Part shown: piece by piece, positions 2,878 through 29,717 of the stretch
Layout of the letters: the number at the start of each line of letters is the position of its first letter
Position numbering within the stretch: position 1 is the first letter of the stretch
Source: a virus
Lineage: Duplodnaviria > Caudoviricetes
Strand: one strand, 5' to 3'
Virus record (IMG/VR): IMGVR_UViG_3300026484_000176
Location: 1 to 30,852 of that record
Length of the DNA: 30,852 nt
The notes under the pieces: generated by a model
Told to the model about the DNA's origin: nothing
Database searches by the model: none
Seen by the model: the letters and a program-made list of their open reading frames with translations, nothing else
Translations under genes and position numbers: made by a program

Positions 2878-2896
2878 TTTTAAAGAAATTTAAAAA

Positions 2897-3142
2897 TTAT
2901 TTCTTTATATCTTGTTTTTTAGAAGAATATCTGACTTTTGTTTTTAACATAATTTGAATTTCTTCAACCATTAATAAAATTTGATTTATATTTCTATAAT
3001 CTTTTAATAATAACTCATAATCTTCTTGTTCTAATTCTTTTACTGTTGTGAAATTACTTAATTTATATATTTGTTCTATTTCTTCTTTTATTTGTTCTAA
3101 GTCTCTTGTTTGTTGTTCTATTTCCATTTGTTCATAATGCAT
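2897..3142 (-). CDS. Hypothetical coiled-coil protein
   Basis: 81 aa ORF, first gene of the leftward arm, with own cassette. Confidence 0.75.
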   Translation of the reverse strand: MHYEQMEIEQQTRDLEQIKEEIEQIYKLSNFTTVKELEQEDYELLLKDYRNINQILLMVEEIQIMLKTKVRYSSKKQDIKK

Positions 3143-3238
3143 TGTTTATCCTTTTTTGTTTTGTTTTTATAAGTTGATTTATTAGATTTTCAACTTATCT
3201 ACTATTATTATAATAGATTTTTTTTATTTTCATCTTAA
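3143..3238 (-). promoter_or_regulatory. Early promoter/leader cassette
   Basis: TTAAGA (3233-3238)-N20-TATAAT (3207-3212); inverted repeat 3169-3198; AAGGA. Confidence 0.75.
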
Positions 3239-3274
3239 TTTTAAAAGAATTTGCAAATTTATAAATTATTTCAA

Positions 3275-3710
3275 GATGTAACCTTTTTTGTAACCTCTAT
3301 ACTTCCCTATATTCTGGGCTTTATGGACTGTTTTGGACTGTTGTTATTTTTTAGATGTAACCTTTTTGTAACCTTTTTGTAACCTCTGAAAGTTCCTGAT
3401 GTAGGGCTCTTCAAGTGTTTTGCTTGTTAAAATGTCTAAATTTTTTAGTTTTACTCTTATAAAATATAGTACACATAATTTATTTTTTTTTTAGTTATTT
3501 TAGTATATATTGAAAATTTATATGTTAAAAAACCTTATGAAAGTACATAATATAGGGAAGTATAGAGGTTACAAAAAAGGTTACAAAAAGGTTACATCTA
3601 TATTTTAACCATTCTCCAGCAAAACACTCGAACAGCCCTCGCCAGAGTGAAAAACTAAGCATGTCGAAAAGGTTACAAAAAGGTTACATCAGCAATAAAA
3701 TCATGTAACC
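3275..3710. repeat. Head-to-head GTAACC/GGTTAC iteron array with long inverted repeat; candidate replication origin
   Basis: GTAACC at 3278, 3290, 3357, 3368, 3379, 3705; GGTTAC at 3567, 3579, 3590, 3671, 3682; 11-12 bp spacing; about 3277-3313 is the reverse complement of 3549-3585; AT-rich centre; sits at the coding-strand switch. Repeat is seen directly, function is inferred. Confidence 0.75.
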
Positions 3711-4091
3711 TACTGATTAAAAAATAGGCAAAAACACCACTCGAGAGCAATAATTTTCAAATTTTGAAAGTTCCACGGATTTTTTTTATAACGGAAAATA
3801 ACAAAAAATAACAGAAATGAAAAATTAACGGAAAATAACAAAAATTAACATTAACGAAAAAAAACATTACATTCAGAAAAAATTTTCAAATTTTAAAAAT
3901 TTCCAAAAAGTGAAAAATTAAAAAACCAAAAAAATAAAAATGTTTTGAAAAATTAAAAATTAACAAAAGCTAACAAAAAAAAATATTAACAAAAAATAAC
4001 GAACAGGACATCCAGAAAAAATTTTCAAATTTCAAAATTTCACATGAACTTTTTTAGAAAACTTTAGGAACTTTTTTCGTGCAAAAAATTT

Positions 4092-4106
4092 TGATAATGA
4101 TTATCA
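4092..4106. promoter_or_regulatory. Fur-box-like palindrome
   Basis: TGATAATGATTATCA, perfect 7-1-7 Fur consensus. Confidence 0.7.
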
Positions 4107-4166
4107 ATATCGATTAAAAAAACAGGACATCCAGAAAAAATTTTCAAATTTCAAAATTTAGCAAAA

Positions 4167-4199
4167 TTAAGAGAACATTTTTTAAAAATCTATTATAAT
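4167..4199 (+). promoter_or_regulatory. Rightward promoter upstream of terS
   Basis: TTAAGA-N21-TATAAT, lying between the two 112-bp repeats. Confidence 0.6.
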
Positions 4200-4285
4200 G
4201 TATATTCAGAAAAAATTTTCAAATTTCAAAATTTCACATGAACTTTTTTAGAAAACTTTAGGAACTTTTTTCGTGCAAAAAATTT

Positions 4286-4300
4286 TGATAATGATTATCA
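4286..4300. promoter_or_regulatory. Fur-box-like palindrome
   Basis: TGATAATGATTATCA. Confidence 0.7.
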
Positions 4301-4342
4301 ATATCGATTAAAAAAACATTGCATTCAGAAATAATTTTCAAA

Positions 4343-4357
4343 TGATAATGATTATCA
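4343..4357. promoter_or_regulatory. Fur-box-like palindrome
   Basis: TGATAATGATTATCA directly after motif A (4326-4342), about 70 bp before terS. Confidence 0.7.
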
Positions 4358-4429
4358 AAAATAAATTTATAATATTATTAAAAAATAAGAAAAGAAAAAA
4401 ATATTTTAAAAATCAAAAAGGGATAAAAA

Positions 4430-4927
4430 ATGTCAAAAAAAATTTTATTAATTGAAGAACTAGAACAAAAAAACTTAATAAAAATTGCAAAAGAATATTG
4501 TTTAAATGGTTTTGATATTGTTTCAGCATATAAGACATTTATAAGCAAATCAGTATATAAGACAGATAAGAAAGCAAAAGAGAGAAGCGAAATTATTTCT
4601 GAATATACAGAGTTTAAAAACTATATAGAAGACTTTAAAGGAGATATAAAAGAACTTTATAGAGACACTACAATAGAGACAATATCAAAGCTAAGAGAGA
4701 TTATATTAAATGAATATTATGAGAAATATGATGTAATAAAAGATACTAAGACATTAGAACATAAAGACATTAAGTATAAATCTTCTATACCATTTACAGA
4801 CAAGCTAAGAGCCATAGAAACGCTAATAAAGCTATCTAAATTAGTAGAAGATGGAGAAGAAGATAAAGATACAAATAACACTATATTTAATTTTTATACA
4901 AAAGATTTAAACAAAAAGAAAAAATAA
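4430..4927 (+). CDS. terS: Terminase small subunit
   Basis: Directly upstream of TerL; N-terminal KEYCLNGFDIVSAY helix-turn-helix-like segment and DKLRAIETLIK resembling TerS C-terminal motif. Confidence 0.7.
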   Translation: MSKKILLIEELEQKNLIKIAKEYCLNGFDIVSAYKTFISKSVYKTDKKAKERSEIISEYTEFKNYIEDFKGDIKELYRDTTIETISKLREIILNEYYEKYDVIKDTKTLEHKDIKYKSSIPFTDKLRAIETLIKLSKLVEDGEEDKDTNNTIFNFYTKDLNKKKK

Positions 4928-4992
4928 TTTTTTTTAACATTATATAAAGAAATAATTTTTGAATTTAAAAATTTTTTCCAGATGTCATTAAA

Positions 4993-5025
4993 ATAAGAAG
5001 ACATTTTTTTTTAAAGTGTTATAAT
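4993..5025 (+). promoter_or_regulatory. Promoter upstream of terL
   Basis: ATAAGA-N21-TATAAT with TG extension (TGTTATAAT). Confidence 0.55.
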
Positions 5026-5066
5026 ATATATAAGAAAAGAAAAGGTTTTTAAAAGGAAAAAAATTT

Positions 5067-6347
5067 ATGAATACTCAAGAACTTTATCCATTATCTGAAA
5101 TATCACAACAAGTATGGGAAGAACAAGATAAATATAAGATACAATGCTTACAAGGAGCAGTTAGAAGTTCTAAATCATTTACTGCAAATATAATTTTTTT
5201 AAATAAATTAAAGAATAAAAAAGGAAATGTATTAATATCAGGATTTAGTGCAGATAGTGCAAAAAAGAATATATTACCAGAACTTGAAGAATTATTAAAT
5301 GTAGAATTTGAAGGACATAATAGCACAAAAGGAGAATATTTCAGCATACCTTTAAAAGAGTTTAGACATATAAAACTATATGTTAAAGGTGCAGGAAAGA
5401 ATGGAGATGAGAAAAAAATTCAAGGTATTACACTACTTGGTTGGTTAGCTGATGAAGTAGCAACATATTCAAAACCATTTTTTGATATGACATTAACAAG
5501 ACTAAGTATGTCAAATAGTTTTGCTATATGGACATTAAATCCAGAGAGTCCTTCACATTGGTTAAAGAAATGGTTAGATAAACAAGAAGAGATAAAAGAT
5601 AATAAATATATAAAAAATTATTATTATAAATTAGATGATAACTTATCATTAACAGAAGAATATAAGAATGAATTAAAAACAAGTTTCAGTGGTCATTTTT
5701 ATGATAGAATGGTTTTAGGAAAATGGGCAGTTGGAGAAGGATTAATATTTAATATAGATAAAGTTAAATTTGTAAAACAACAAGACATTCAGAAAAAATT
5801 TTCAAATATCCCAAAATTTTTATATGAAGATTATGTTGCAATAGATTTTGGAACTACTAATTATACAAGTTTTTTACATATAAGAAAACATATACCAAAA
5901 GAGATATATATAGATGAAGAAAAAGATAATGAAAGATATGCAGAATATTATATAATAAAAGAATTTTATAAGAATAAATTAAGTCCATCACAATATGTAA
6001 AAGAGTTAGAAGAGTTTATAAAAGATATAAATGTAATACAGATAATAATAGATCCAGCTTCTGCACATTTTAAACAAGAAGTCAAACAATCAGAATATAT
6101 AATGAAAAAGACAGAATTAAGAAGTGCAAAGAATGATGTCAAAAAAGGAATTTTATTAACCCAAAGATTTATAGAGAATGGATTATTAACAATATCAGAG
6201 GAATGTAAGAACTTAAAAGATGAATTAGGAGGATATAGCTGGGATGAAAAGAAGATAGATACACCTATAAAAGAGAATGACCATGCAGTTGATGCAATGA
6301 GATATGGAATATTTACAACTTCATCATTTACTTATGAAAGTTTATAA
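5067..6347 (+). CDS. terL: Terminase large subunit (PBSX/SPP1-like)
   Basis: Walker A GAVRSSKS, Walker B WLADE, coupling motif TLNP, nuclease residues IDFG, DPA, DHAVDAMRY. Confidence 0.95.
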   Translation: MNTQELYPLSEISQQVWEEQDKYKIQCLQGAVRSSKSFTANIIFLNKLKNKKGNVLISGFSADSAKKNILPELEELLNVEFEGHNSTKGEYFSIPLKEFRHIKLYVKGAGKNGDEKKIQGITLLGWLADEVATYSKPFFDMTLTRLSMSNSFAIWTLNPESPSHWLKKWLDKQEEIKDNKYIKNYYYKLDDNLSLTEEYKNELKTSFSGHFYDRMVLGKWAVGEGLIFNIDKVKFVKQQDIQKKFSNIPKFLYEDYVAIDFGTTNYTSFLHIRKHIPKEIYIDEEKDNERYAEYYIIKEFYKNKLSPSQYVKELEEFIKDINVIQIIIDPASAHFKQEVKQSEYIMKKTELRSAKNDVKKGILLTQRFIENGLLTISEECKNLKDELGGYSWDEKKIDTPIKENDHAVDAMRYGIFTTSSFTYESL

Positions 6348-6355
6348 ATATATTT

Positions 6356-6370
6356 TGATAATCATTATCA
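6356..6370. promoter_or_regulatory. Fur-box-like palindrome (inverted composite element)
   Basis: TGATAATCATTATCA followed by the reverse complement of motif A (6371-6390). Confidence 0.7.
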
Positions 6371-6439
6371 TTTAAAAATTTTTACCGTATATTCAGAAAA
6401 AATTTACAAATTTACAAATTTTTTAAAAATTTAGCAAAA

Positions 6440-6472
6440 TTAAGAATAAAAAAATTTTTTTTCTATTATAAT
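6440..6472 (+). promoter_or_regulatory. Promoter of early-cassette type
   Basis: TTAAGA-N21-TATAAT then ATAAGTTGAAA half-site (6481) and AAGGA. Confidence 0.65.
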
Positions 6473-6526
6473 ATAAGTATATAAGTTGAAAGACTTAAAG
6501 AAAAAACAAAAAAAAAGGACAAAAAA

Positions 6527-6862
6527 ATGAAAAACTTAATAAAAGAATTAACAAACAAAGTAAATAAAATAAACGCAATAAACGATAAAATAGAAAATTT
6601 TAGAGCTGATATGCTTCCAAGAGATAAATTTATATTTGGATTAGAAGAAGAAGAATTAACAATAACAATTGAAAATCCTTATAAAGATTCAAAATTTTCT
6701 TTATCAATAGTTAAAGAAGAAGAAAACAAAGAAAGATTTAATAAAGCTTTTAATAAATTATTAGAAGATTTAACAGAAGAAGAGTTAAGCGAACAACTTT
6801 GGGAAATAATATATGTTTTCTATACTTTTAATAATAATTATGAATTAGTTGAAAGATACTAA
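6527..6862 (+). CDS. Hypothetical protein
   Basis: 111 aa acidic ORF with strong RBS and own promoter. Confidence 0.8.
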   Translation: MKNLIKELTNKVNKINAINDKIENFRADMLPRDKFIFGLEEEELTITIENPYKDSKFSLSIVKEEENKERFNKAFNKLLEDLTEEELSEQLWEIIYVFYTFNNNYELVERY

Positions 6863-7011
6863 TCCATAATTTTAAAAAATTTTTTTTAAAATGTTATAAT
6901 TAAACAAGACATTCAGAAATAATTTTTGAATTTAAAAATTTCTTTAAAATAAGAACAAAAAAAATAAAAAAACATTATAATAAATAATGAAAAGAAAAGG
7001 AAACAAAAAAA

Positions 7012-7371
7012 ATGAAAATTAATTTTAAATGTTGTATGACTTGTAATATTGTAAAAGATATTAAACATTTCAATAAAAACAATAGACATTGTAAAAAATG
7101 TATAGCAAAAAAAATTAAACAAAAAAGACAAGAAACAAAAAAACATTTATTAAAAAGAAGAGGAAACAAATGTGAAGACTGTGGATTAGAATATGATGGA
7201 GAGAATATTTATTATTTTACATTTCATCATGTAAAACCAGAAGAAAAAAAATTTGAATTATCAGCAAATAAAAATTATTCTTTAAAAGAATTAGAAGAAG
7301 AAGCAGACAAATGTATAATATTATGCCACAATTGCCACAATAAATATCATTATATAAATGGATTTAAATAA
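7012..7371 (+). CDS. Zn-binding HNH endonuclease
   Basis: CxxC pairs, CEDCG...FHH...KCIILCHNCH; own promoter ATAAGA-N21-TATAAT at 6949-6981. Confidence 0.85.
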   Translation: MKINFKCCMTCNIVKDIKHFNKNNRHCKKCIAKKIKQKRQETKKHLLKRRGNKCEDCGLEYDGENIYYFTFHHVKPEEKKFELSANKNYSLKELEEEADKCIILCHNCHNKYHYINGFK

Positions 7372-7511
7372 TTAATGACATCCAGAAATAATTTTCAAAT
7401 TTCAAAATTTAGCAAAATTAAGAACAAAAAAAATAAAAATCTATTATAATCAAAATCAAAATTATTTTTGTAATATAATTAAAAATAAAATATTACAAAA
7501 GGTATTAAAAA

Positions 7512-7793
7512 ATGAAAGAAGAAAAAAAGGATTTTTGTACTTTATTTTTTGAAAATTATCGAGGTGTATATATTGGAGATTGTTGCAAAAAGCACGATAT
7601 AGAGTGTGGATTTTCAGGTTCTTACAGTATTAAAAAATCAATAGATATATTTTATAATTGTTTAATAAATAAAATAGATAAGTTTTCTGCTATAATGATA
7701 ACAGCAGGTGGAACAATAGGATACATTGTAAAATATCCTTATTTATTTATAAGAAAATATAAATATAGAAAAAAAATTTTAAAGGAAAAATAA
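7512..7793 (+). CDS. Phospholipase A2-like small protein
   Basis: DFCT...DCCKKHD matches the CCxxHD secreted-PLA2 catalytic signature; promoter TTAAGA-N21-TATAAT at 7418-7450. Confidence 0.55.
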   Translation: MKEEKKDFCTLFFENYRGVYIGDCCKKHDIECGFSGSYSIKKSIDIFYNCLINKIDKFSAIMITAGGTIGYIVKYPYLFIRKYKYRKKILKEK

Positions 7794-7794
7794 T

Positions 7795-9081
7795 ATGTCA
7801 GTAAAGTCAAATAATAAATATAAAACATTAGCAGAACATATAATAAAAACATATGAAGATGATGAATATTACAAAAATTCAATATTTAAAAATGAAGTTT
7901 TAGGTAAACATATAGTAGATAAATTTGGAAATATAGATGATAAAGCAATATCACAAATTCAAATAATGGTTTTGCCATTTGTTAGATTTATAACAACTGC
8001 AATATCACAATTATATTCAAAACCAGTTTTAAGAACAATAAATACAGATAATAATAAAATATTAGAATTATTTGAGGAAGTTTGTTCAGCTTATGACAAT
8101 ATTTCAGAAGATATAGACAAATATACATTTGCAGGTGGAATGTCAGCAGTAAAAGCACATTTTGATGATATAGATAAAGAATTAGAATTTGTGATATATA
8201 CAGCAAATATGTTAGATTATACTCCAAGAGCTGATGATTATACAAAAATGGAAGAATTATATCTAAGTTTTTATAATGATGAAGTACAACAAGAAGAGGT
8301 TTGGAGTAAAGAAGAATATAATTATAATGTAAATGGTTCAAATTCAAAAAGTGAAAAAAATATTTATGGATTTATTCCTTTTGAAATTTTTAGAAATAAA
8401 ATAATTCCAAATTCTTGGTTTTGTCCTCCTTCTTCTAATTTATTAGACATTCAAAATTATATTTCTAATCAAAATACACAATTAGGAAATAATTTTAAAT
8501 ATCAATCAATGGATATGATAGTTGTTAAAGGTGGAGGAAAGTTAGAAAATATGAATTTTGGTGCAAAAGCTGTAAATAAAGTAGAAACAGAAGATGATAT
8601 AAAATTTATTTCTCCATCTACAGATTTAAAAAAATTAGTTTCAGTAGTTGAAGACCAAATAAAAATTTTTTCAAGAATGAATGGAATACCTGATTCATTA
8701 ATTTCTGCTGCTTCTACAAGCTCAGGAATATCTTTAATAATATCACAAAAAGCTTTAGATGATTATTTAAAGAATAGAAGTATAAAATTTAGAAAGACAG
8801 AAGAAAAAATTCTTTTAAAAGGTCTTAAAGTATTAGGATATCATAAAGGAATAACTATACCAGAAGAATTAAAAATTTCTTTAAATTATACTTCTGCAAA
8901 TCAAATGACAAAATTAACAGAAGATGAACAAAAAATGTGGGATTTTTATATAGAAAAGAATATATTAACAGAAGTTGATTTAATGATGACAATGTTTCCA
9001 AATCTAACAGAAGAAGAAGCAATCCAAAAGATAGAAGAGAACAAACAAAACAAAACAAAACAAGAAATCATTACATCTTGA
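7795..9081 (+). CDS. Portal protein
   Basis: 428 aa, position after TerL; N.YG.IPF, SSG.SL and C-terminal TEEEA...IEE features typical of SPP1-like portals. Confidence 0.85.
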   Translation: MSVKSNNKYKTLAEHIIKTYEDDEYYKNSIFKNEVLGKHIVDKFGNIDDKAISQIQIMVLPFVRFITTAISQLYSKPVLRTINTDNNKILELFEEVCSAYDNISEDIDKYTFAGGMSAVKAHFDDIDKELEFVIYTANMLDYTPRADDYTKMEELYLSFYNDEVQQEEVWSKEEYNYNVNGSNSKSEKNIYGFIPFEIFRNKIIPNSWFCPPSSNLLDIQNYISNQNTQLGNNFKYQSMDMIVVKGGGKLENMNFGAKAVNKVETEDDIKFISPSTDLKKLVSVVEDQIKIFSRMNGIPDSLISAASTSSGISLIISQKALDDYLKNRSIKFRKTEEKILLKGLKVLGYHKGITIPEELKISLNYTSANQMTKLTEDEQKMWDFYIEKNILTEVDLMMTMFPNLTEEEAIQKIEENKQNKTKQEIITS

Positions 9082-9123
9082 AAAAATTTTCAAATTTCAT
9101 TACATACGGAAAAAATTTTTAAA

Positions 9124-9138
9124 TGATAATGATTATCA
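9124..9138. promoter_or_regulatory. Fur-box-like palindrome
   Basis: TGATAATGATTATCA after two tandem motif-A variants (9074-9123), just upstream of the RBS of ORF 9163. Confidence 0.7.
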
Positions 9139-9162
9139 AAAAGAAAAAAAAGGATTTTTAAA

Positions 9163-9975
9163 ATGACAACTGAAGAATTAGTAAAAAAATTAAGTCAAAC
9201 AACAGATAGAAAAGCAATATTAAGATTAATAAAAGAAGCAACTATAGATAATTCAATAAAAATTGATGATATTGCTTCTGGTGATATTGGTGATACATAT
9301 ATGTTAAAATCTGATTATGATACTGATAAGAATGGAACAGTAGATATAGCAGAATTAGCGTGGGAATCAAGTGAAGCTGCAAGAGTTAATGGACATACAG
9401 TAGAGAGTGATGTTCCTTCAAATGCAGTTTTTACAGATACAACATATACAGATTTAGAAATAAAAACAAAATATGAAAATAATCCTAATACAAATGCTTA
9501 TACAGATATAGAAAAAGCAAAATTAGATGGAATAGAAGAAAATGCAACAGCAGATTTAACAGCACCAGAGATTAAATCATTATATGAGAGTAATGCAAAT
9601 ACAAATGTTTTTTTAGATGCAGAAAAAGCAAAACTAGCAGGAATAGAACCATTAGCAACAGCAGACCAAACAGATGAAGAAATTAAAATTGCATACGAAA
9701 ATAATTTTCAAGTTTTAACAATAAACTCTGATACAATATTAACAGAAGAAAAAAGAAGTATTTTAGCTGATACAATAAATAATAATATAAATTTAACTTT
9801 ACCAAATTTAAAAGATAATTTAATAATAAATATAAAAAAAATTAATGAAAAAAATATTTTAAGAATTATAACTCCTGGTAATGAATTAATAGAAAATGAT
9901 ACAGAAATAATTTTAAATGTTAAAAATGAAAGCATAACACTTTTATGTGATAATAATAATTGGTTTATTATATAA
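9163..9975 (+). CDS. Fibre-like virion structural protein
   Basis: 37-aa tandem repeats with EKAKL.GIE..ATAD, a YDTDKNGTVD motif and a C-terminal ILADT...INLTLP beta domain, all seen in phage fibre proteins. Confidence 0.6.
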   Translation: MTTEELVKKLSQTTDRKAILRLIKEATIDNSIKIDDIASGDIGDTYMLKSDYDTDKNGTVDIAELAWESSEAARVNGHTVESDVPSNAVFTDTTYTDLEIKTKYENNPNTNAYTDIEKAKLDGIEENATADLTAPEIKSLYESNANTNVFLDAEKAKLAGIEPLATADQTDEEIKIAYENNFQVLTINSDTILTEEKRSILADTINNNINLTLPNLKDNLIINIKKINEKNILRIITPGNELIENDTEIILNVKNESITLLCDNNNWFII

Positions 9976-10024
9976 TAAAATTAAATAACAAGATATTAAG
10001 AAAAAATTTTTAAAAGGAAAAAAA

Positions 10025-11227
10025 ATGAGTTATAAACCATTTAATATGTATGATAAGAATGATACAGCATTTGATGCTTGGGGAAGACCAAAGATTTATC
10101 AAGATTTATCATTATTGCATGGAGTTTTTACATATAATGTTCCAAATTCTTTATGGATAATAAAAGAAAATGGAACTGAATTATTAGATAATGATACTTC
10201 AACAAAAGTTTATTCTTCTACTATAAACTTAGGAAGATTAATAGTAGAATCAGGAGAAAATGCAAATGATGAAGGAAGCTTATATTCAAGAAGAAGTCCA
10301 AGATATCAGCCAAATAGAGGACATTTATTTTCAACAGCAGTAGGTTTCCCAAATCCAACAGCAGATGGGATTAGAGATTTTGGATTATTTAATGAAGAAA
10401 ATGGAGTTTTTTATAGATTAAAAGCAGATGGATTATATGCAGTTATAAGAAGTGAAGGTTCTGATTATGAAGAAAAAATAACAATACCTTTTTCAATAGA
10501 TTTATCAAAAGGGAATATTTATGATATACAATTTCAATGGAGAGGAGTAGGAGATTATAATTTTTTTATTGGAAATCCAGAAAGTGGGAAAATAGAATTA
10601 GTTCATAAAATAACTTTTTTAAATACATTAACAGAAAAATTATCAATTTCTAACCCTGCTTTACCAGTTGGAATGAAAGCAACTAATATAACAGAAGCAG
10701 TAAGTTTTTGGCTTGGTTGTTTTGATGTTTCAAGTGAAGGTGGAAGTAAAGTATTTTTTAAATATTCGCAAGTAGGAAATGATAATATAAATGGAACAAA
10801 AATATCAAATGATAAATTATATCCAGTAGTTGCTTTAAAGGTAAATAGAACATTTAATGGAAGAATAAATACAAGAGATGCAATATTAAGAAGAATAATA
10901 TTAAGTGCAAAAGATGAAAATAGATATGAAGTACAAGTAACAAGAGATGAATCAGCTTTTTCTGGAACAACTTGGACAAATAAAGGAAGTTTTGATAATA
11001 TGCAATATTCACAAGGTACAGATATATCATATACAGAAACACAATATTGTCATACAATATTAAATGGAAGAAGTGAAATAGATATAAAAAATGAAATAGC
11101 AACTCCTGTTTTTGATGGAAGTTCTGATTTTACATTAACTGCTGGTGATTATATAGTAGTTTTAATGAAAACAGATGGAACAGATAAAAGAGCTTGGGCA
11201 TCTATTGAATATACAGAAGAAGTATAA
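10025..11227 (+). CDS. Putative beta-rich virion structural protein
   Basis: 400 aa; DAWGR N-terminal motif, RYQP.RG, QWRGVG; beta/lectin-like composition; function inferred. Confidence 0.55.
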   Translation: MSYKPFNMYDKNDTAFDAWGRPKIYQDLSLLHGVFTYNVPNSLWIIKENGTELLDNDTSTKVYSSTINLGRLIVESGENANDEGSLYSRRSPRYQPNRGHLFSTAVGFPNPTADGIRDFGLFNEENGVFYRLKADGLYAVIRSEGSDYEEKITIPFSIDLSKGNIYDIQFQWRGVGDYNFFIGNPESGKIELVHKITFLNTLTEKLSISNPALPVGMKATNITEAVSFWLGCFDVSSEGGSKVFFKYSQVGNDNINGTKISNDKLYPVVALKVNRTFNGRINTRDAILRRIILSAKDENRYEVQVTRDESAFSGTTWTNKGSFDNMQYSQGTDISYTETQYCHTILNGRSEIDIKNEIATPVFDGSSDFTLTAGDYIVVLMKTDGTDKRAWASIEYTEEV

Positions 11228-11649
11228 TGAAATTATTTTTAAATTATACACCAGTTCCTGCTTCAAGACCAAGAGTAACGAAGTGGGGGACATTTTATAG
11301 TAAAAAATATAATGATTATAAAAATAAAATAAAACATGACATTCAGAAAAAATTTTTAAATGATAATGATTATCAAAAAGCAGAAAAAACAACTGCATTA
11401 AATATAAAAATAATTTTTAAATTTCCTTTTCCAAAATCATATAGTAAAAAAAAGAGATTAGAAATAAAAGAAAATAATTATTTGCATTTAATAAAACCAG
11501 ATTTAGATAATTTAGAAAAAGCTATTTTAGATGGAATGAATGAAATTGTATATAATGATGATAGTCAAATATGTGAATTATCAAGTTCTAAAAGATATAC
11601 AGAAGAGGAAAACGGAAGTACAGAAATAATTATAGAAGTTATAAAATAA
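11227..11649 (+). CDS. rusA: RusA-family Holliday junction resolvase
   Basis: PVPASRPR N-terminus; KPDLDNLEKAILDGM...YNDDSQI catalytic motif. Confidence 0.92.
   Translation: MKLFLNYTPVPASRPRVTKWGTFYSKKYNDYKNKIKHDIQKKFLNDNDYQKAEKTTALNIKIIFKFPFPKSYSKKKRLEIKENNYLHLIKPDLDNLEKAILDGMNEIVYNDDSQICELSSSKRYTEEENGSTEIIIEVIK
11361..11375. promoter_or_regulatory. Fur-box-like palindrome inside rusA
   Basis: Motif A (11344-11360) + TGATAATGATTATCA, read as DIQKKFLNDNDYQK. Confidence 0.65.
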
Positions 11650-11703
11650 TTTTTTTTATGATATACTATAAAAGAACAAAAAACAAAAAAAAAGGAATTA
11701 AAA

Positions 11704-12342
11704 ATGCTTACAGAAGAAGAAAAAATAAAACAACAACTGGAAGAATTAAACAAAAAGAAAGAAGAGGAAAACAATGATAACAATACTAATAATAATGAAG
11801 AAGATAAGAAAGAAAATGAAGAAAATGATGCAGAGAAAAAATTTTCAAATGATAATGATTCTCAAAAAGAAAATAAAGAAGAAGTAGAAGATAAAAAAAA
11901 AGAACAGGAAAAATCTATATCGAAAGAGCAAGAAATACTAAACAAAAGAATAGAAGAACTTGAGAAAAAATTAGAAGAAGAAAGACAAAAGAAAGAAGAA
12001 ACAGAAAAAACATTATTAGAAAAACAAAATGAGATTTTAGAGAAGTTAAAAGATAAAGAAAGAAAGATAGAAGAAAAGATATTAGAAAGTTCAGGTGCAG
12101 AAGATAAAGAATATGTTAAATATTTAGCAGAAAAACTAGTAAATGAAGGCAAAACATTTGAAGAAGCTATAAATGTATTAAATGAAGAAAAACCTAATTT
12201 ATTTGTGCAAAATAGAAAAAGCATAGGGACAAAACCAAATGGAAACAGTTCAGGAAAATTAACATATGCAGAATGGGAAGCATTACCAAAGAATGAAAGA
12301 ATAAAACAAATGAATGCAGGAAATGTTGATTTAAACTCATAA
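11704..12342 (+). CDS. Capsid scaffolding protein
   Basis: Highly charged coiled coil directly before the capsid gene; EKPNLF motif; extended -10 TGATATACT at 11659-11667. Confidence 0.8.
   Translation: MLTEEEKIKQQLEELNKKKEEENNDNNTNNNEEDKKENEENDAEKKFSNDNDSQKENKEEVEDKKKEQEKSISKEQEILNKRIEELEKKLEEERQKKEETEKTLLEKQNEILEKLKDKERKIEEKILESSGAEDKEYVKYLAEKLVNEGKTFEEAINVLNEEKPNLFVQNRKSIGTKPNGNSSGKLTYAEWEALPKNERIKQMNAGNVDLNS
11850..11864. promoter_or_regulatory. Fur-box variant inside scaffold gene
   Basis: Motif A + TGATAATGATTCTCA (one mismatch). Confidence 0.6.
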
Positions 12343-12440
12343 AAAAAAATTATAATATAATTATATAAGTTATTTTTTAACAATATAATTATATTTTTAT
12401 AATATAATATAAAAAATTAAAACAAAACAAAGGAAATAAA

Positions 12441-13256
12441 ATGGCATTCAAAAAAACTTTTTGGTCAGATAAACTTGAAGAAAAATTATATGCAAATCAA
12501 CCTCTTATAGATGTTGTTAGAGCAGATTTTGAAGGTGAAGCAAAATTTGGTAATATGGTTAAGGTATATACTTATGAGTCAGCTGTAACAGTTCAAGACT
12601 ATGATGGAGTTACACCAGTACCAGCACAAAAACTTGCACCGTCTGAAGTTACTTTACTAATAGACCAAGCAAAAACTTTTAGAATAAGAACAGATAGAGT
12701 TGATGAACTACAAGGTGATCCTATGGCAATTGACAAATTTGCTAAAACAGCAATGTTTGAAGTTGGTCAATTAATAGAATCTAAAATATATGCACATAAA
12801 GCAGATTTAACAAATAACTTAGATTTATCAGGTCAAGGACCAATGGACGCAACAAATGCAGTTTCTATAATTGAAAAACTTGAGGTTTTACTTGATGATG
12901 AAAATGTTGATACAGACAGATTTTTATATGTACCAAATGCTATAAAATCTATTTTAAGACAAGCAAATTATTTAAATGTAACACCAGTAACTAATTCTGA
13001 AACAGGTGGAACAAGAGAAGTTGCAAGATGGGGAAATTTTGAAGTTATTTCTTCTAGTAATTTAGTTGCTAATGGTGGAGTTTATGAAATCTTATTTGGT
13101 TCAAAAGATGCTATAAGATTTGTTGGAGCATTAGAAGAATTAGAATATGGAAAAGTTGAAGGATTATTTGGTAAAGCAATTTTTGGTCTTTATGTATATG
13201 GTTCAGCAGTTTTCAATTCTAAAAAAGGTGGAACATTAACAATAGATGCTGCATAG
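12441..13256 (+). CDS. Major capsid protein
   Basis: FWSDKL, FEGE..FGNMVKV, LLIDQAK, VP..DRFLYV-like and GLYVYG motifs of P22-coat-like HK97-fold capsids; follows scaffold. Confidence 0.88.
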   Translation: MAFKKTFWSDKLEEKLYANQPLIDVVRADFEGEAKFGNMVKVYTYESAVTVQDYDGVTPVPAQKLAPSEVTLLIDQAKTFRIRTDRVDELQGDPMAIDKFAKTAMFEVGQLIESKIYAHKADLTNNLDLSGQGPMDATNAVSIIEKLEVLLDDENVDTDRFLYVPNAIKSILRQANYLNVTPVTNSETGGTREVARWGNFEVISSSNLVANGGVYEILFGSKDAIRFVGALEELEYGKVEGLFGKAIFGLYVYGSAVFNSKKGGTLTIDAA

Positions 13257-13327
13257 TGTTTATTGTTAATTAAATATTAAAAAATTTCTCTTTTATGATA
13301 TAATATAAAAAACATAAAAGGGAAATT

Positions 13328-13555
13328 ATGAAAAAAACAAAAATAATAAATACAAAAACAAATTTAGTCTTCTATATATTAGATTTATTTGTTCCTACAC
13401 AATTAGAAAAAAATCCACATTATAAAATCTACAAAGAAAAAAAATCCACAAAGAAAAAAAATAATAATAAAATTAAAGAAGAACAAGATATTCAGAAAAA
13501 ATTTTCAAATGATAATGATTATCAAAAAGAAAAAAAACAAACAAAGGATAAATAA
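13328..13555 (+). CDS. Small basic hypothetical protein
   Basis: 75 aa; extended -10 TGATATAAT at 13296-13304; TAATG-coupled to next gene. Confidence 0.65.
   Translation: MKKTKIINTKTNLVFYILDLFVPTQLEKNPHYKIYKEKKSTKKKNNNKIKEEQDIQKKFSNDNDYQKEKKQTKDK
13510..13524. promoter_or_regulatory. Fur-box-like palindrome inside ORF 13328
   Basis: Motif A (13493-13509) + TGATAATGATTATCA, read as DIQKKFSNDNDYQK. Confidence 0.65.
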
Positions 13556-14682: not shown

Positions 14683-14738
14683 AAATTTTTTTATAATATC
14701 ATTATAAGAAATAATTAAACAAAACAAAAGGAAATAAA

Positions 14739-16416: not shown

Positions 16417-16431
16417 TGATAATGATTATCA
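16417..16431. promoter_or_regulatory. Fur-box-like palindrome upstream of TMP
   Basis: AGAAAAAATTTTTAAA + TGATAATGATTATCA about 10 bp before the AAGGA RBS. Confidence 0.7.
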
Positions 16432-18603: not shown

Positions 18604-18660
18604 AATAATATAATAAAAACAAGATATTCAGAAAAAATTTTTAAATTATAAAGGAAGAAA

Positions 18661-26657: not shown

Positions 26658-26822
26658 ATGAAAAAGATAGATATTTTTAATAAATTTATAATAAATATAT
26701 TCATTTTATCTTCTTTTTATGGTTGTTCTTATAAAAATTATAATATAAATAAATATAATTATTCAATTAAAAATAATAATCAATCTAAATATATAGTTGA
26801 AATTTATAATAAAGAAAAATAA
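26658..26822 (+). CDS. Small lipoprotein (54 aa), possible spanin component
   Basis: Not in the ORF track; MKKIDIFNKFIINIFILSSFYGC lipobox-like Cys23; AAGGAG RBS. Confidence 0.55.
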   Translation: MKKIDIFNKFIINIFILSSFYGCSYKNYNINKYNYSIKNNNQSKYIVEIYNKEK

Positions 26823-26992
26823 TGGAAAATAACAAAGATATATTAAAAAAATTTTTAAATAAAGAAAACTTTGGTATAACAAAAGATATAGCAAAAAAAT
26901 ATTCTTTTGAATTAAGTGAAATATATTTACAAGATGCTATTTTTATATTAAAGAATGAATTAAAACTATCAGAGGTAAAAATAAATGGATAA
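26822..26992 (+). CDS. Small hypothetical protein (56 aa, MENNKDILKKF...)
   Basis: Not in the ORF track; TAATG-coupled to the lipoprotein, fills the gap to ORF 26985. Confidence 0.5.
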   Translation: MENNKDILKKFLNKENFGITKDIAKKYSFELSEIYLQDAIFILKNELKLSEVKING

Positions 26993-27320
26993 TGAAGCAT
27001 TAGTAAATAAAGTTATAGAAATTGATATTAATCTACATGAACAAAAAATGTCAATTAATACATTAGAAAAAACATTAGAAAAGATAACAAATGTATTAGA
27101 AAAATTAACTGTTATTGAACAAAAAAATGCTGTTTTAAATGAACAATTTATAAATGTAGAGAAAAGAACAACTAACTTAGAAGAACGAAATAAATGGATA
27201 AATAGAACATTAGTTGGATTAATGATAGTTTCTCTTGGACAATTCTTTTTTGATAAAATTATACATAAAAAAGAAGAACAAAATAATACAGTTGTAAAGA
27301 TAGAAAAGAAAAAGACTTAA
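26985..27320 (+). CDS. Coiled-coil protein with C-terminal TM helix (XhlA-like lysis protein)
   Basis: Heptad repeats then KWINRTLVGLMIVSLGQFFF. Confidence 0.55.
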   Translation: MDNEALVNKVIEIDINLHEQKMSINTLEKTLEKITNVLEKLTVIEQKNAVLNEQFINVEKRTTNLEERNKWINRTLVGLMIVSLGQFFFDKIIHKKEEQNNTVVKIEKKKT

Positions 27321-29000: not shown

Positions 29001-29717
29001 TTAAAATAAATTTTCTAAATTGTTATCTTTTAGATATTTTTTTATTTTTAATATTATATTTTTAATATTATTATTTATTTTTTTTGTTTTACCAGATAAA
29101 AAATCTTCAATATATTTTAATTCTTTTTCTGTTATTTTTTTTGCCTCATAACATTCAAATATAACATCTAAAATAGGAGTTTTTTTTCTTTCTTCTGTGT
29201 TATCTAATATATAAGTATCAAGAGTTATACCTTTATCTTTATCTTCTATCTCACTCTCAAATAATTCAAAATTTTTTTTAATCTTATTCTCTTCTTTGCA
29301 TTTATTTAATAATTCTTCATATTCTTTTTCTGTTATCTTTTTATTTTTCAAATCTTTCTTTAATTCTTTCTCATATTTATCAACTTTAAGTTTATTATAT
29401 CCATATTTTTCCCAAAATTTAGTAACCCAAGGAATATGAACTATATCATGGTTTTCAATTGTAAATTTATATAAAGAATTATATATTGAAGAATATACAA
29501 AAGAAGTTATCTTCATTCCTTTTGTTTCATCATATTTTGAATGTGCTATTATTACACTTATCCAAGCTTCTTGCAATAAATCGTGTATGTTCTGTTTTGA
29601 TTTTTTAGAAAAAGAAATAGCAAATTTATAAACCATATTCTCATACTGTTCAATAATATTATATTTGAACTTTTTTTCTATTTCTTCAGTTGTCAAATAT
29701 TCTTTTTCTTCTTTCAT
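29001..29717 (-). CDS. Sigma70 region-2-like protein
   Basis: YENMVYKFA...HDLLQEAWISVIIAHSKYDETKGMKITSFVY...IVHIP closely follows the sigma region 2 consensus (DLxQE, yD..kG.kf.ty, ir.P). Confidence 0.75.
   Translation of the reverse strand: MKEEKEYLTTEEIEKKFKYNIIEQYENMVYKFAISFSKKSKQNIHDLLQEAWISVIIAHSKYDETKGMKITSFVYSSIYNSLYKFTIENHDIVHIPWVTKFWEKYGYNKLKVDKYEKELKKDLKNKKITEKEYEELLNKCKEENKIKKNFELFESEIEDKDKGITLDTYILDNTEERKKTPILDVIFECYEAKKITEKELKYIEDFLSGKTKKINNNIKNIILKIKKYLKDNNLENLF

Follow-up and report, generated by a model that had tools for sequence, protein, structure and literature searches.

The 30,852-nucleotide stretch analysed here (the window; IMG/VR virus record IMGVR_UViG_3300026484_000176, a virus of the Caudoviricetes) carries 22 copies of an asymmetric DNA motif, module A, which in seven places is fused to a palindromic box of the Fur type, module B. 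The peptide that an original prediction, made from the letters alone, had seen repeated in four unrelated proteins of this phage is a by-product of this two-part element. Judging from its sequence and distribution, the element is very probably a selected protein-binding site of some kind. We give a probability of about one half to a more specific reading, in which module A would be an operator for a phage protein, acting at promoters and as a roadblock within transcripts, with host Fur sitting beside it at the seven fused copies. The two modules, the Fur-type nature of the second and the presence of another motif on the same codons of the large terminase (TerL) in a related phage, G001, all go beyond the original prediction.

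The two modules and their distribution

Module A (24-27 bp) reads CAN KAYAT NNN GAAAWAATTTTYAAAT, and module B, TGATAATGATTATCA, is a Fur-type 7-1-7 palindrome whose first T is the last base of A. Module B is found nine times at ≤1 mismatch (eight perfect copies and one with a single mismatch) against a null mean of 0.1, and the distance across the A-B junction is identical in all seven fused copies. The matrix scan for module A gave 28 matches above 10 bits, of which 22 were kept and six weak ones dropped (9690, 11399, 14545, 14700, 20697, and 26837); the match at 14700 scores equal to two of the kept copies, which were retained because a box lies downstream of them. Markov shuffles gave 0.45 matches above 12 bits and 0-0.05 above 16 bits, compared with 19 above 16 bits in the first scan of the genome. 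When the matrix was built from the 16 intergenic copies only, the copies in terL (36.5 bits), rusA (36.4 bits) and open reading frame (ORF) 13328 (34.4 bits) ranked 3, 4, and 6 among all 27-mers of the genome, and the copy in the scaffold gene ranked 23 (17.2 bits). Conservation along the motif is uneven, with ten of 24 columns invariant in 22/22 copies and variable spacer columns (chi2 153, 23 degrees of freedom, somewhat inflated by the choice of the copies with the same matrix). The six A+B cassettes are identical at 36-44 of 47 positions, AAAAG follows the box in five of seven, and the flanks of the copies are near background (9-22/30 identical); the blocks of A plus promoter at 4126 and 7377 agree at 88% over a length of 74 bp.

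On its reverse strand module B has 14 of the 14 bases of the Fur consensus of E. coli, which may not be that of the host. The 19-bp E. coli consensus is described in PMC7536154, and the 7-1-7 arrangement as the minimal unit both there and in PMC11353095; two boxes of the window match the 19-mer with one mismatch, and the 7-1-7 symmetry is perfect in eight of the nine. At ≤1 mismatch there are nine Fur-type and two Per-type matches, and TATAAT is found close downstream of box 4343 only, the remaining boxes being in leaders or genes. The two boxes that match the 19-mer are also those that lack a module A (4070-4111 and 4264-4305); they come after GTGCAAAAAATTT, which resembles the motif of G001, and this arrangement is possibly the ancestral form.

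We found the A+B element in none of the viral contigs (searched with two patterns) and in none of the bacterial and archaeal genome contigs scanned. A structured RNA was rejected, since seven copies showed no stable fold (z from -2.0 to +0.3) and no Rfam family was matched by the copies. The CodY and P1 C1 motifs match at only 10/15 and 9/17 positions and were rejected as AT-richness. The copies and boxes are distributed as follows.

2888..2914, - strand: module A covering the end of the early ORF at 2897-3142 (QDIKK*, at 2911), 61 bp upstream of a -10 box
3257..3283, - strand: module A 68 bp upstream of the -10 box of an early promoter
3865..4357, + strand: control region upstream of terS (small terminase), with five module-A copies (3868, 4007, 4126, 4201, 4320) besides Fur-type boxes at three places (4092, 4286, 4343)
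4938..4989, both strands: opposed module-A pair (4941 +, 4986 -) between terS and terL, the + copy 79 bp upstream of a -10 box
5781..5807, + strand: module A alone, without a Fur-type box, at residues 239-247 (QDIQKKFSN) of terL
6356..6411, both strands: two overlapping, opposed copies downstream of terL; the one at 6393 (-) has box 6356-6370, and the one at 6388 (+) lies 79 bp upstream of a -10 box
6905..6931, + strand: intergenic module A; one -10 box starts 13 bp before it and another follows at 68 bp
7374..7400, + strand: intergenic module A, 68 bp upstream of a -10 box
9069..9143, + strand: two copies in tandem, the first covering the stop codon of the portal gene (9072), the second (9101) joined to a Fur-type box (9124-9138) ahead of the next gene
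9989..10015, + strand: intergenic copy of module A, flanked by a -10 box and by the ribosome site of ORF 10025
11335..11380, + strand: module A plus perfect Fur-type box (11361-11375) in rusA
11824..11869, + strand: degenerate module A plus one-mismatch box (11850-11864), where the likely scaffold gene encodes a low-complexity N-terminus
13484..13529, + strand: module A plus perfect box (13510-13524), both in the tail region of ORF 13328-13555, 68 bp upstream of the next start codon
16391..16436, + strand: intergenic A plus perfect Fur-type box (16417-16431) ahead of the tape-measure gene
18620..18646, + strand: the last of the strong module-A copies, flanked by a -10 box and by the ribosome site of ORF 18661

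Twenty of the 22 copies point along transcription (P = 1e-4), the exceptions being two members of the opposed pairs flanking terL; in the window this bias is indistinguishable from a replichore bias. Ten copies fall inside 3800-6450, around terS-terL, and all 15 copies of the late arm lie before 18.9 kb, that is, in the first 14.4 of its 22.9 kb (P = 0.001; two dropped weak matches lie farther on). From the start of A to TATAAT the distance is 68 bp at four promoters, 79 bp (one turn more) at two and 61 bp at one, and five other intergenic or leader positions, that of the copy in rusA included, lie 7-30 bp past the start of TATAAT. The late promoters themselves resemble extended -10 sites (TATGATATAAT). 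At two gene ends that the original prediction had missed (portal, 9072, and ORF 2897-3142, at 2911) the stop codon falls within module A. Weak A-like matches inside genes (26822-26992 at 26837; 14545; 9690) read KDILKKFLN, QDFLEKFIN and, in another frame, IAYENNFQ; they are possibly young or decayed sites.

Copies inside genes

The four peptides begin at 5784 in TerL (QDIQKKFSNIPKF), 11338 in RusA (HDIQKKFLNDNDYQK), 11827 in the scaffold protein (NDAEKKFSNDNDSQK) and 13487 in ORF 13328 (QDIQKKFSNDNDYQK), and the sequence confirms these positions and the use of the same frame in all of them. TerL shares eight residues rather than 14 and has no triple stop, because its copy consists of module A only. 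Where module B is present, the TGA-TAA-TGA stops do close one other frame, as had been noted, but the third frame is open (KTFRKNFQMIMIIKK). The three frames of A+B are thus one with the stops, one that reads MIMII and one that is hydrophilic, and all four genes use the hydrophilic one.

At the TerL site G001 has FLTEEELNNKFLHISKF where the window has FVKQQDIQKKFSNIPKF, and the equal length indicates a substitution; the peptide lies in a predicted helix (238-246, pLDDT ca. 92) just past the interdomain linker, at a site where the solved D6E terminase is seven residues shorter than the family profile. RusA is five residues longer than that of G001, with the copy within a gapped part of the family alignment, and the scaffold protein is 24 residues longer than in G001, the portal of which is in turn 32 residues longer than that of the window. 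The frequency of the modal residue is 0.23 at the site vs. 0.51 elsewhere in TerL (17 homologues) and 0.19 vs. 0.54 in RusA (24 homologues), while the copies in the scaffold and ORF 13328 are placed in charged, low-complexity ends. The alignment with homologues that had been proposed as a check therefore gives a same-length replacement in poorly conserved columns for TerL, and for RusA a gain of five residues for a peptide of 14. Homologues from phages without the intergenic motif, with the same peptides in freely varying codons, had been named as the contrary evidence, and none of the 248 other proteins fetched carries the peptide.

At the codon level, the invariant G of the motif occupies the third codon position in each of the four genes (CAG, CAG, GAG, CAG) and forces codons that are rare in the 18 late genes (CAG in 8/183 Gln, GAG in 41/485 Glu); the copies in terL and rusA also use the rare GAC (40/386). 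Assembly contigs of one run match these two copies without difference and no strain variation was seen in them, a match that is not independent because that run may be the source of the record. The absence of the peptide from other proteins, the rare codons that keep the motif and the uneven conservation of its columns bear out the idea that selection acts on the DNA site. The accompanying idea of loops of essential proteins being overwritten overstated the cost: the columns are the least conserved ones or belong to low-complexity tails, and in TerL the copy is in a helix without change of length. With these positions and the hydrophilic frame, the cost to the proteins is likely small. A function of the site outside promoters, also proposed originally, appears plausible. 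Just upstream of the copy in rusA (11307-11321) the KYNDY codons contain both a TATAAT and a palindrome of Per-like sequence, which G001 shares and which may be due to chance.

The related phage, other phages and the genome setting

G001 was the single close relative found (TerL 73%), others at ≥60% identity being absent from a search with TerL, capsid and tail-tube queries, the metagenome part of which covered 55 of 64 parts. Module A is absent from G001 (best match 9.5 bits). G001 has instead a motif of its own, AGAACAAYATGCAAAAATTATTT, with seven strong copies, six in its gene-free region and one at a gene end. With a 16-bp matrix made from these seven, the best other match of the genome falls on the homologous TerL codons (15.0 bits), and the next of the 95 AAATTT places outside the control region scores 8.2 bits. 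The codons of this TerL copy, TTG CAC ATC, are all rare (7/227, 4/20, and 15/237). Six Fur-type boxes are found in G001 (null 0.23), five of them in a gene-free stretch of 3.9 kb, to be compared with 1.3 kb for the longest such stretch of the window, and the two phages differ also in promoter and Fur-box style. The gene-free stretch of G001 (3060-6980) contains origin-like inverted repeats, a triple repeat of 83-85 bp, Fur-type 19-mers and the phage's own motif, with no Rfam match. Two other loci, L084 (a more distant relative, TerL 42%) and L085, show no repeated motif of the module-A kind, and both lack the region upstream of terS; L084 has two methyltransferase-like ORFs between portal and scaffold (3094-4582) and a 54-bp direct repeat after each (3621-3674, 4639-4692). 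G001 also encodes an HU protein (L001 1818-2108), and its primase-like gene (L002 10416-11873, L001 1-630) seems split or frameshifted across the record end, that of the window having 531 residues.

No Fur-type boxes were found in 158 other loci (1.43 Mb). Phage T5 has boxes at ≤1 mismatch only in its terminal repeats (233-247, 9658-9672, 9699-9713); a perfect box is in frame in dmp (EDDNDYQF; DDNDYQ) and is kept in a T5-like contig. Phage Sundance has one box per terminal repeat. From 7 of 64 parts we estimate that ca. 1300 viral stretches carry a perfect box. None of 121 loci had more than two, vs. eight in the window. ORFs contain 60 of the 126 perfect boxes of the viral contigs, so that a single box within a gene can be due to chance and counts as weak evidence. 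Four unrelated uncultured phages have non-coding arrays of 3-9 boxes:

L203, 2217-2749
L204, 4041-4268
L167, 1788-1901
L196, 3887-6176

Arrays of at least three non-coding boxes adjoin terminase genes in three of these four lineages vs. 4/62 coding controls (P = 0.003, an optimistic value, as one case is by TerS only and 41 loci have little flank; with at least two boxes the count is 3/14 loci). Controls with a single non-coding box were beside terminase in 5/44 cases, many of them with ca. 600 bp of sequence only. The single mismatch of the scaffold box is the commonest variant in the non-coding arrays, and one genome, G002, has nine boxes within 520 bp.

With its end overlap of 127 bp, the window represents a single circular phage record of 30,725 bp; its G+C content is 21.6%, and its DNA was found in one hydrothermal-vent metagenome run. 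Early genes are read leftward and virion genes rightward from a gene-free region at ca. 3140-4430, within which there is also a 194-bp duplication inside the control region 3865..4357. The remaining features of interest are:

969-1502: second sigma-70-like protein
3277..3710, no strand: inverted GGTTAC repeat clusters within the gene-free region, at the GC-skew minimum
4430..4927, + strand: terS, small terminase, identified by Atlas
5067..6347, + strand: terL, PBSX/SPP1-type large terminase, identified by PHROGs
29001..29717, - strand: sigma-70-like protein of 238 residues, an alternative candidate for the binder of module A

The GGTTAC cluster region is likely the replication origin. RusA, capsid and tail genes were, like TerL, identified by PHROGs; the scaffold label is inferred from gene position and composition, and the gene status of ORF 13328-13555 is weakly supported by a syntenic ORF in G001 (E = 0.013). 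Both sigma-70-like proteins are kept in G001, at 46% and 36% identity. Between terL and portal (6347-7795) the window has three extra genes (111 residues, HNH, and 93 residues), each with its own block of A plus promoter, where G001 has none. A gene at 26985-27320 is holin-like by a Pfam match to XhlA that is below the cut-off. The window showed no recognisable endolysin, and G001 has a peptidase-like ORF before rusA. The scanned ORFs (31 against PHROGs, 23 window ORFs against Pfam and 18 against NCBIfam) included no integrase, repressor or ParAB, and a search for a phage Fur found none. Many small ORFs of the window have no family assignment, and a novel repressor could be among them.

Searches with the TerL, primase, sigma-like and HU proteins named no host. 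AAGGA precedes 16 of 20 starts, with no GGAGG, and TTAAG is found ca. 21 bp upstream of TATAAT. The former resembles the ribosome-site pattern of Campylobacterota, and the latter was compared with the -35 motif in PMC3824568. These motifs, together with the vent source, suggest the Campylobacterota as candidate hosts.

Possible roles of the element and known systems

In the explanation that we favour, module A would be bound by a phage protein, likely the small terminase, and likely with host Fur adjacent, and the element would thereby adjust the expression of packaging and virion genes, its roadblocks being located in the terminase and head transcripts. Copies 68-79 bp upstream of a -10 box would modulate initiation, and those just past a -10 box, or within terL, rusA, the scaffold gene and ORF 13328, would reduce the rate of initiation or elongation; at copies joined to a Fur-type box, occupancy would depend on the iron state of the host. 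The in-gene copies likely arose by substitutions, along with minor changes in length, and short matches such as AAA TTT (Lys-Phe) would have been their seeds. They would have persisted only in proteins that can accommodate hydrophilic residues at that place, which would explain why a single reading frame is used. TerS is the foremost candidate for the binder, since the copies cluster at terS-terL, its residues 45-62, which adjoin the predicted DNA-binding end, are poorly matched between the two phages, and there is a precedent in the self-repression of SPP1 TerS.

Several observations weigh against this explanation. The TerS domain of SF6 binds weakly and with little sequence specificity (PMC4737164), which fits poorly with invariant bases, and among the scanned ORFs there is no repressor or integrase, whereas stoperators, the dispersed repressor sites of phages such as L5, are a feature of temperate phages. 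With the six dropped weak matches the orientation becomes 24/28, two of the six being anti-oriented, and the fixed promoter spacing could also arise by copying blocks of A plus promoter. The comparison with G001 involves two genomes only: the full 24-bp matrix of that phage scores its TerL copy at only 11 bits (rank 9), the likelier motif alignment puts this copy on the opposite strand, the AAATTT seed is common by descent, and there is no copy of the motif in the rusA or scaffold gene of G001. Finally, the location of the G001 boxes in a gene-free stretch favours a position-independent role.

Among the alternatives, the one that survives best, although we consider it unlikely, is a role in packaging or DNA architecture. 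Module A would then be a bent, pac-like terminase site, the box would recruit Fur as a helper in the way that IHF is the architectural helper at lambda cos, and the copies would mark the half of the genome that is packaged first, effects on transcription being secondary. The peak of copy density at terS-terL and the confinement of the late copies to the first 14.4 of 22.9 kb agree with this, as do the box arrays beside terminase in three of four lineages and the boxes in the terminal repeats of T5 and Sundance. There is a parallel in SPP1, in which the direct repeats of pac extend over the promoter of terS and bent DNA is what TerS selects (PMC4737164). However, packaging does not account for the exact -10 spacing at seven promoters, two of them early, and the link to terminase comes from four lineages, one by TerS only, and falls to 3/14 loci with at least two boxes.

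It is less probable that the number of sites matters and not their place, i.e., that the phage DNA is a decoy array that titrates host Fur, and a second regulator through A, derepressing iron uptake, with boxes inside genes because the window has no spacer like that of G001. The two 31-kb genomes do have similar numbers of boxes (nine vs. six) in different places and gene-free stretches of 1.3 vs. 3.9 kb; the boxes are of near-perfect consensus, G002 concentrates nine of them, and A+B is in no bacterial or archaeal genome scanned. Titration leaves unexplained the orientation bias, the fixed A-B junction (7/7), the promoter spacing and the shared TerL position, and in a hydrothermal vent, from which the metagenome comes, iron is perhaps not limiting.

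A selfish micro-element, the spread by gene conversion that had been offered originally as the alternative to selection, is a poor fit and in our view very improbable. A functionless 47-bp cassette copied by recombination and tolerated in permissive coding stretches would agree with the similarity of the six cassettes (36-44/47), the extra residues in RusA (five) and the scaffold (24) relative to G001 and the 194-bp duplication, but not with the unchanged length of TerL, the column-specific decay, the near-background flanks (9-22/30), the different motif of G001 at the same TerL codons or a second module that fits a known protein site. The most doubtful proposal is that A is a host-protein site, or an uptake-like bias, that differs between phages as their hosts differ: no phage repressor was found and the two phages do differ in promoter and Fur-box style, but A+B is absent from the genome contigs scanned, CodY and P1 C1 match only in part (10/15 and 9/17), and strand and position bias, such as the copies display, are not known features of uptake-driven accumulation. 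Uptake sequences are likewise found in poorly conserved codons (PMC2817400).

Selection at the DNA level here sets 8-14 residues of essential virion-assembly proteins, and the motif of G001 on the same TerL codons provides a built-in control. Fur becomes a testable host factor for a class of sites found repeatedly at terminase loci and at the ends of phage genomes, and as T5 is among these phages, iron control of lytic development could be tested in a laboratory phage. A wider proposal, which is speculative and rather unlikely, would be that lytic phages recruit host Fur to the terminase locus and genome end, with iron gating packaging and virion genes, and that in this phage a cassette of terminase site and Fur box spread into the phage's own terminase, resolvase and head genes, the proteins being rewritten to accommodate it, while the terL site was re-tuned each time DNA-binding specificity drifted. 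There is also a caution in these results, as peptides common to unrelated phage proteins may be DNA signals.

In the literature we found nothing relevant on Fur boxes governing lytic phage genes or terminase loci, on Fur titration by phages, on in-frame phage motifs or cassettes or on Fur at the T5 stop signal, most subscription papers being outside the coverage. Peptides coded by motifs (uptake sequences), dispersed oriented operators (L5) and Fur boxes at prophage iron genes are already known; what is new is that a 47-bp cassette has been exported into genes and that the motif at one position of TerL has changed.

The terminal-repeat boxes of T5 are near-perfect and restricted to the genome ends, and one is in frame in dmp, like the in-gene boxes of the window, but T5 has no module A. 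Elements of the RPE/MITE type lengthen the host protein and carry terminal inverted repeats or a stable hairpin, whereas here TerL keeps its length, RusA gains five residues for a 14-residue peptide and there is no stable fold. Uptake sequence cores are 9-10 bp long, and the element of the window is 24-47 bp, strand-biased and found in a 31-kb phage, while uptake sequences are present in hundreds of copies in competent bacteria. Those of Haemophilus and Neisseria are nevertheless similar in that a motif inside genes raises the frequency of a peptide and prefers certain frames and poorly conserved residues (PMC2817400). Fur boxes are described upstream of prophage iron genes (PMC6969025); the boxes of the window differ from the usual ones in belonging to a phage in which no iron genes were seen, in their fixed distance to a second motif and in their presence in coding sequence (three copies), and their binding of Fur is predicted. 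With the pac region of SPP1/SF6 the window shares a PBSX/SPP1-type terminase (SPP1-type TerS and TerL families) and direct repeats with A-tracts over the terS promoter region, represented by the five copies at 3868-4343, and SPP1 TerS represses its own operon; the SPP1 repeats, as described in PMC4737164, are local and of low specificity, whereas the motif of the window is strict and reaches 14 kb into the late arm.

The closest likeness is to the stoperators of L5 and other Cluster A phages (PMC6550527, PMC5712189), 20-30 asymmetric sites spread over the genome along transcription, some at promoters and most not, which serve as operators and, within transcripts, as roadblocks. Their consensus varies between related phages and some sites are syntenic; here there is one relative, with a different motif, one TerL position in common and the strand likely opposite. 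The site of the window is AT-rich and 24-27 bp long rather than 13 bp, seven copies are fused to a Fur box, and no repressor or integrase was found. Stoperators are mostly intergenic, whereas in the window four copies determine 8-14 residues of the proteins in whose genes they lie and another two provide stop codons. The element would work like a stoperator array, but we do not class it as one because the repressor that defines the family was not found.

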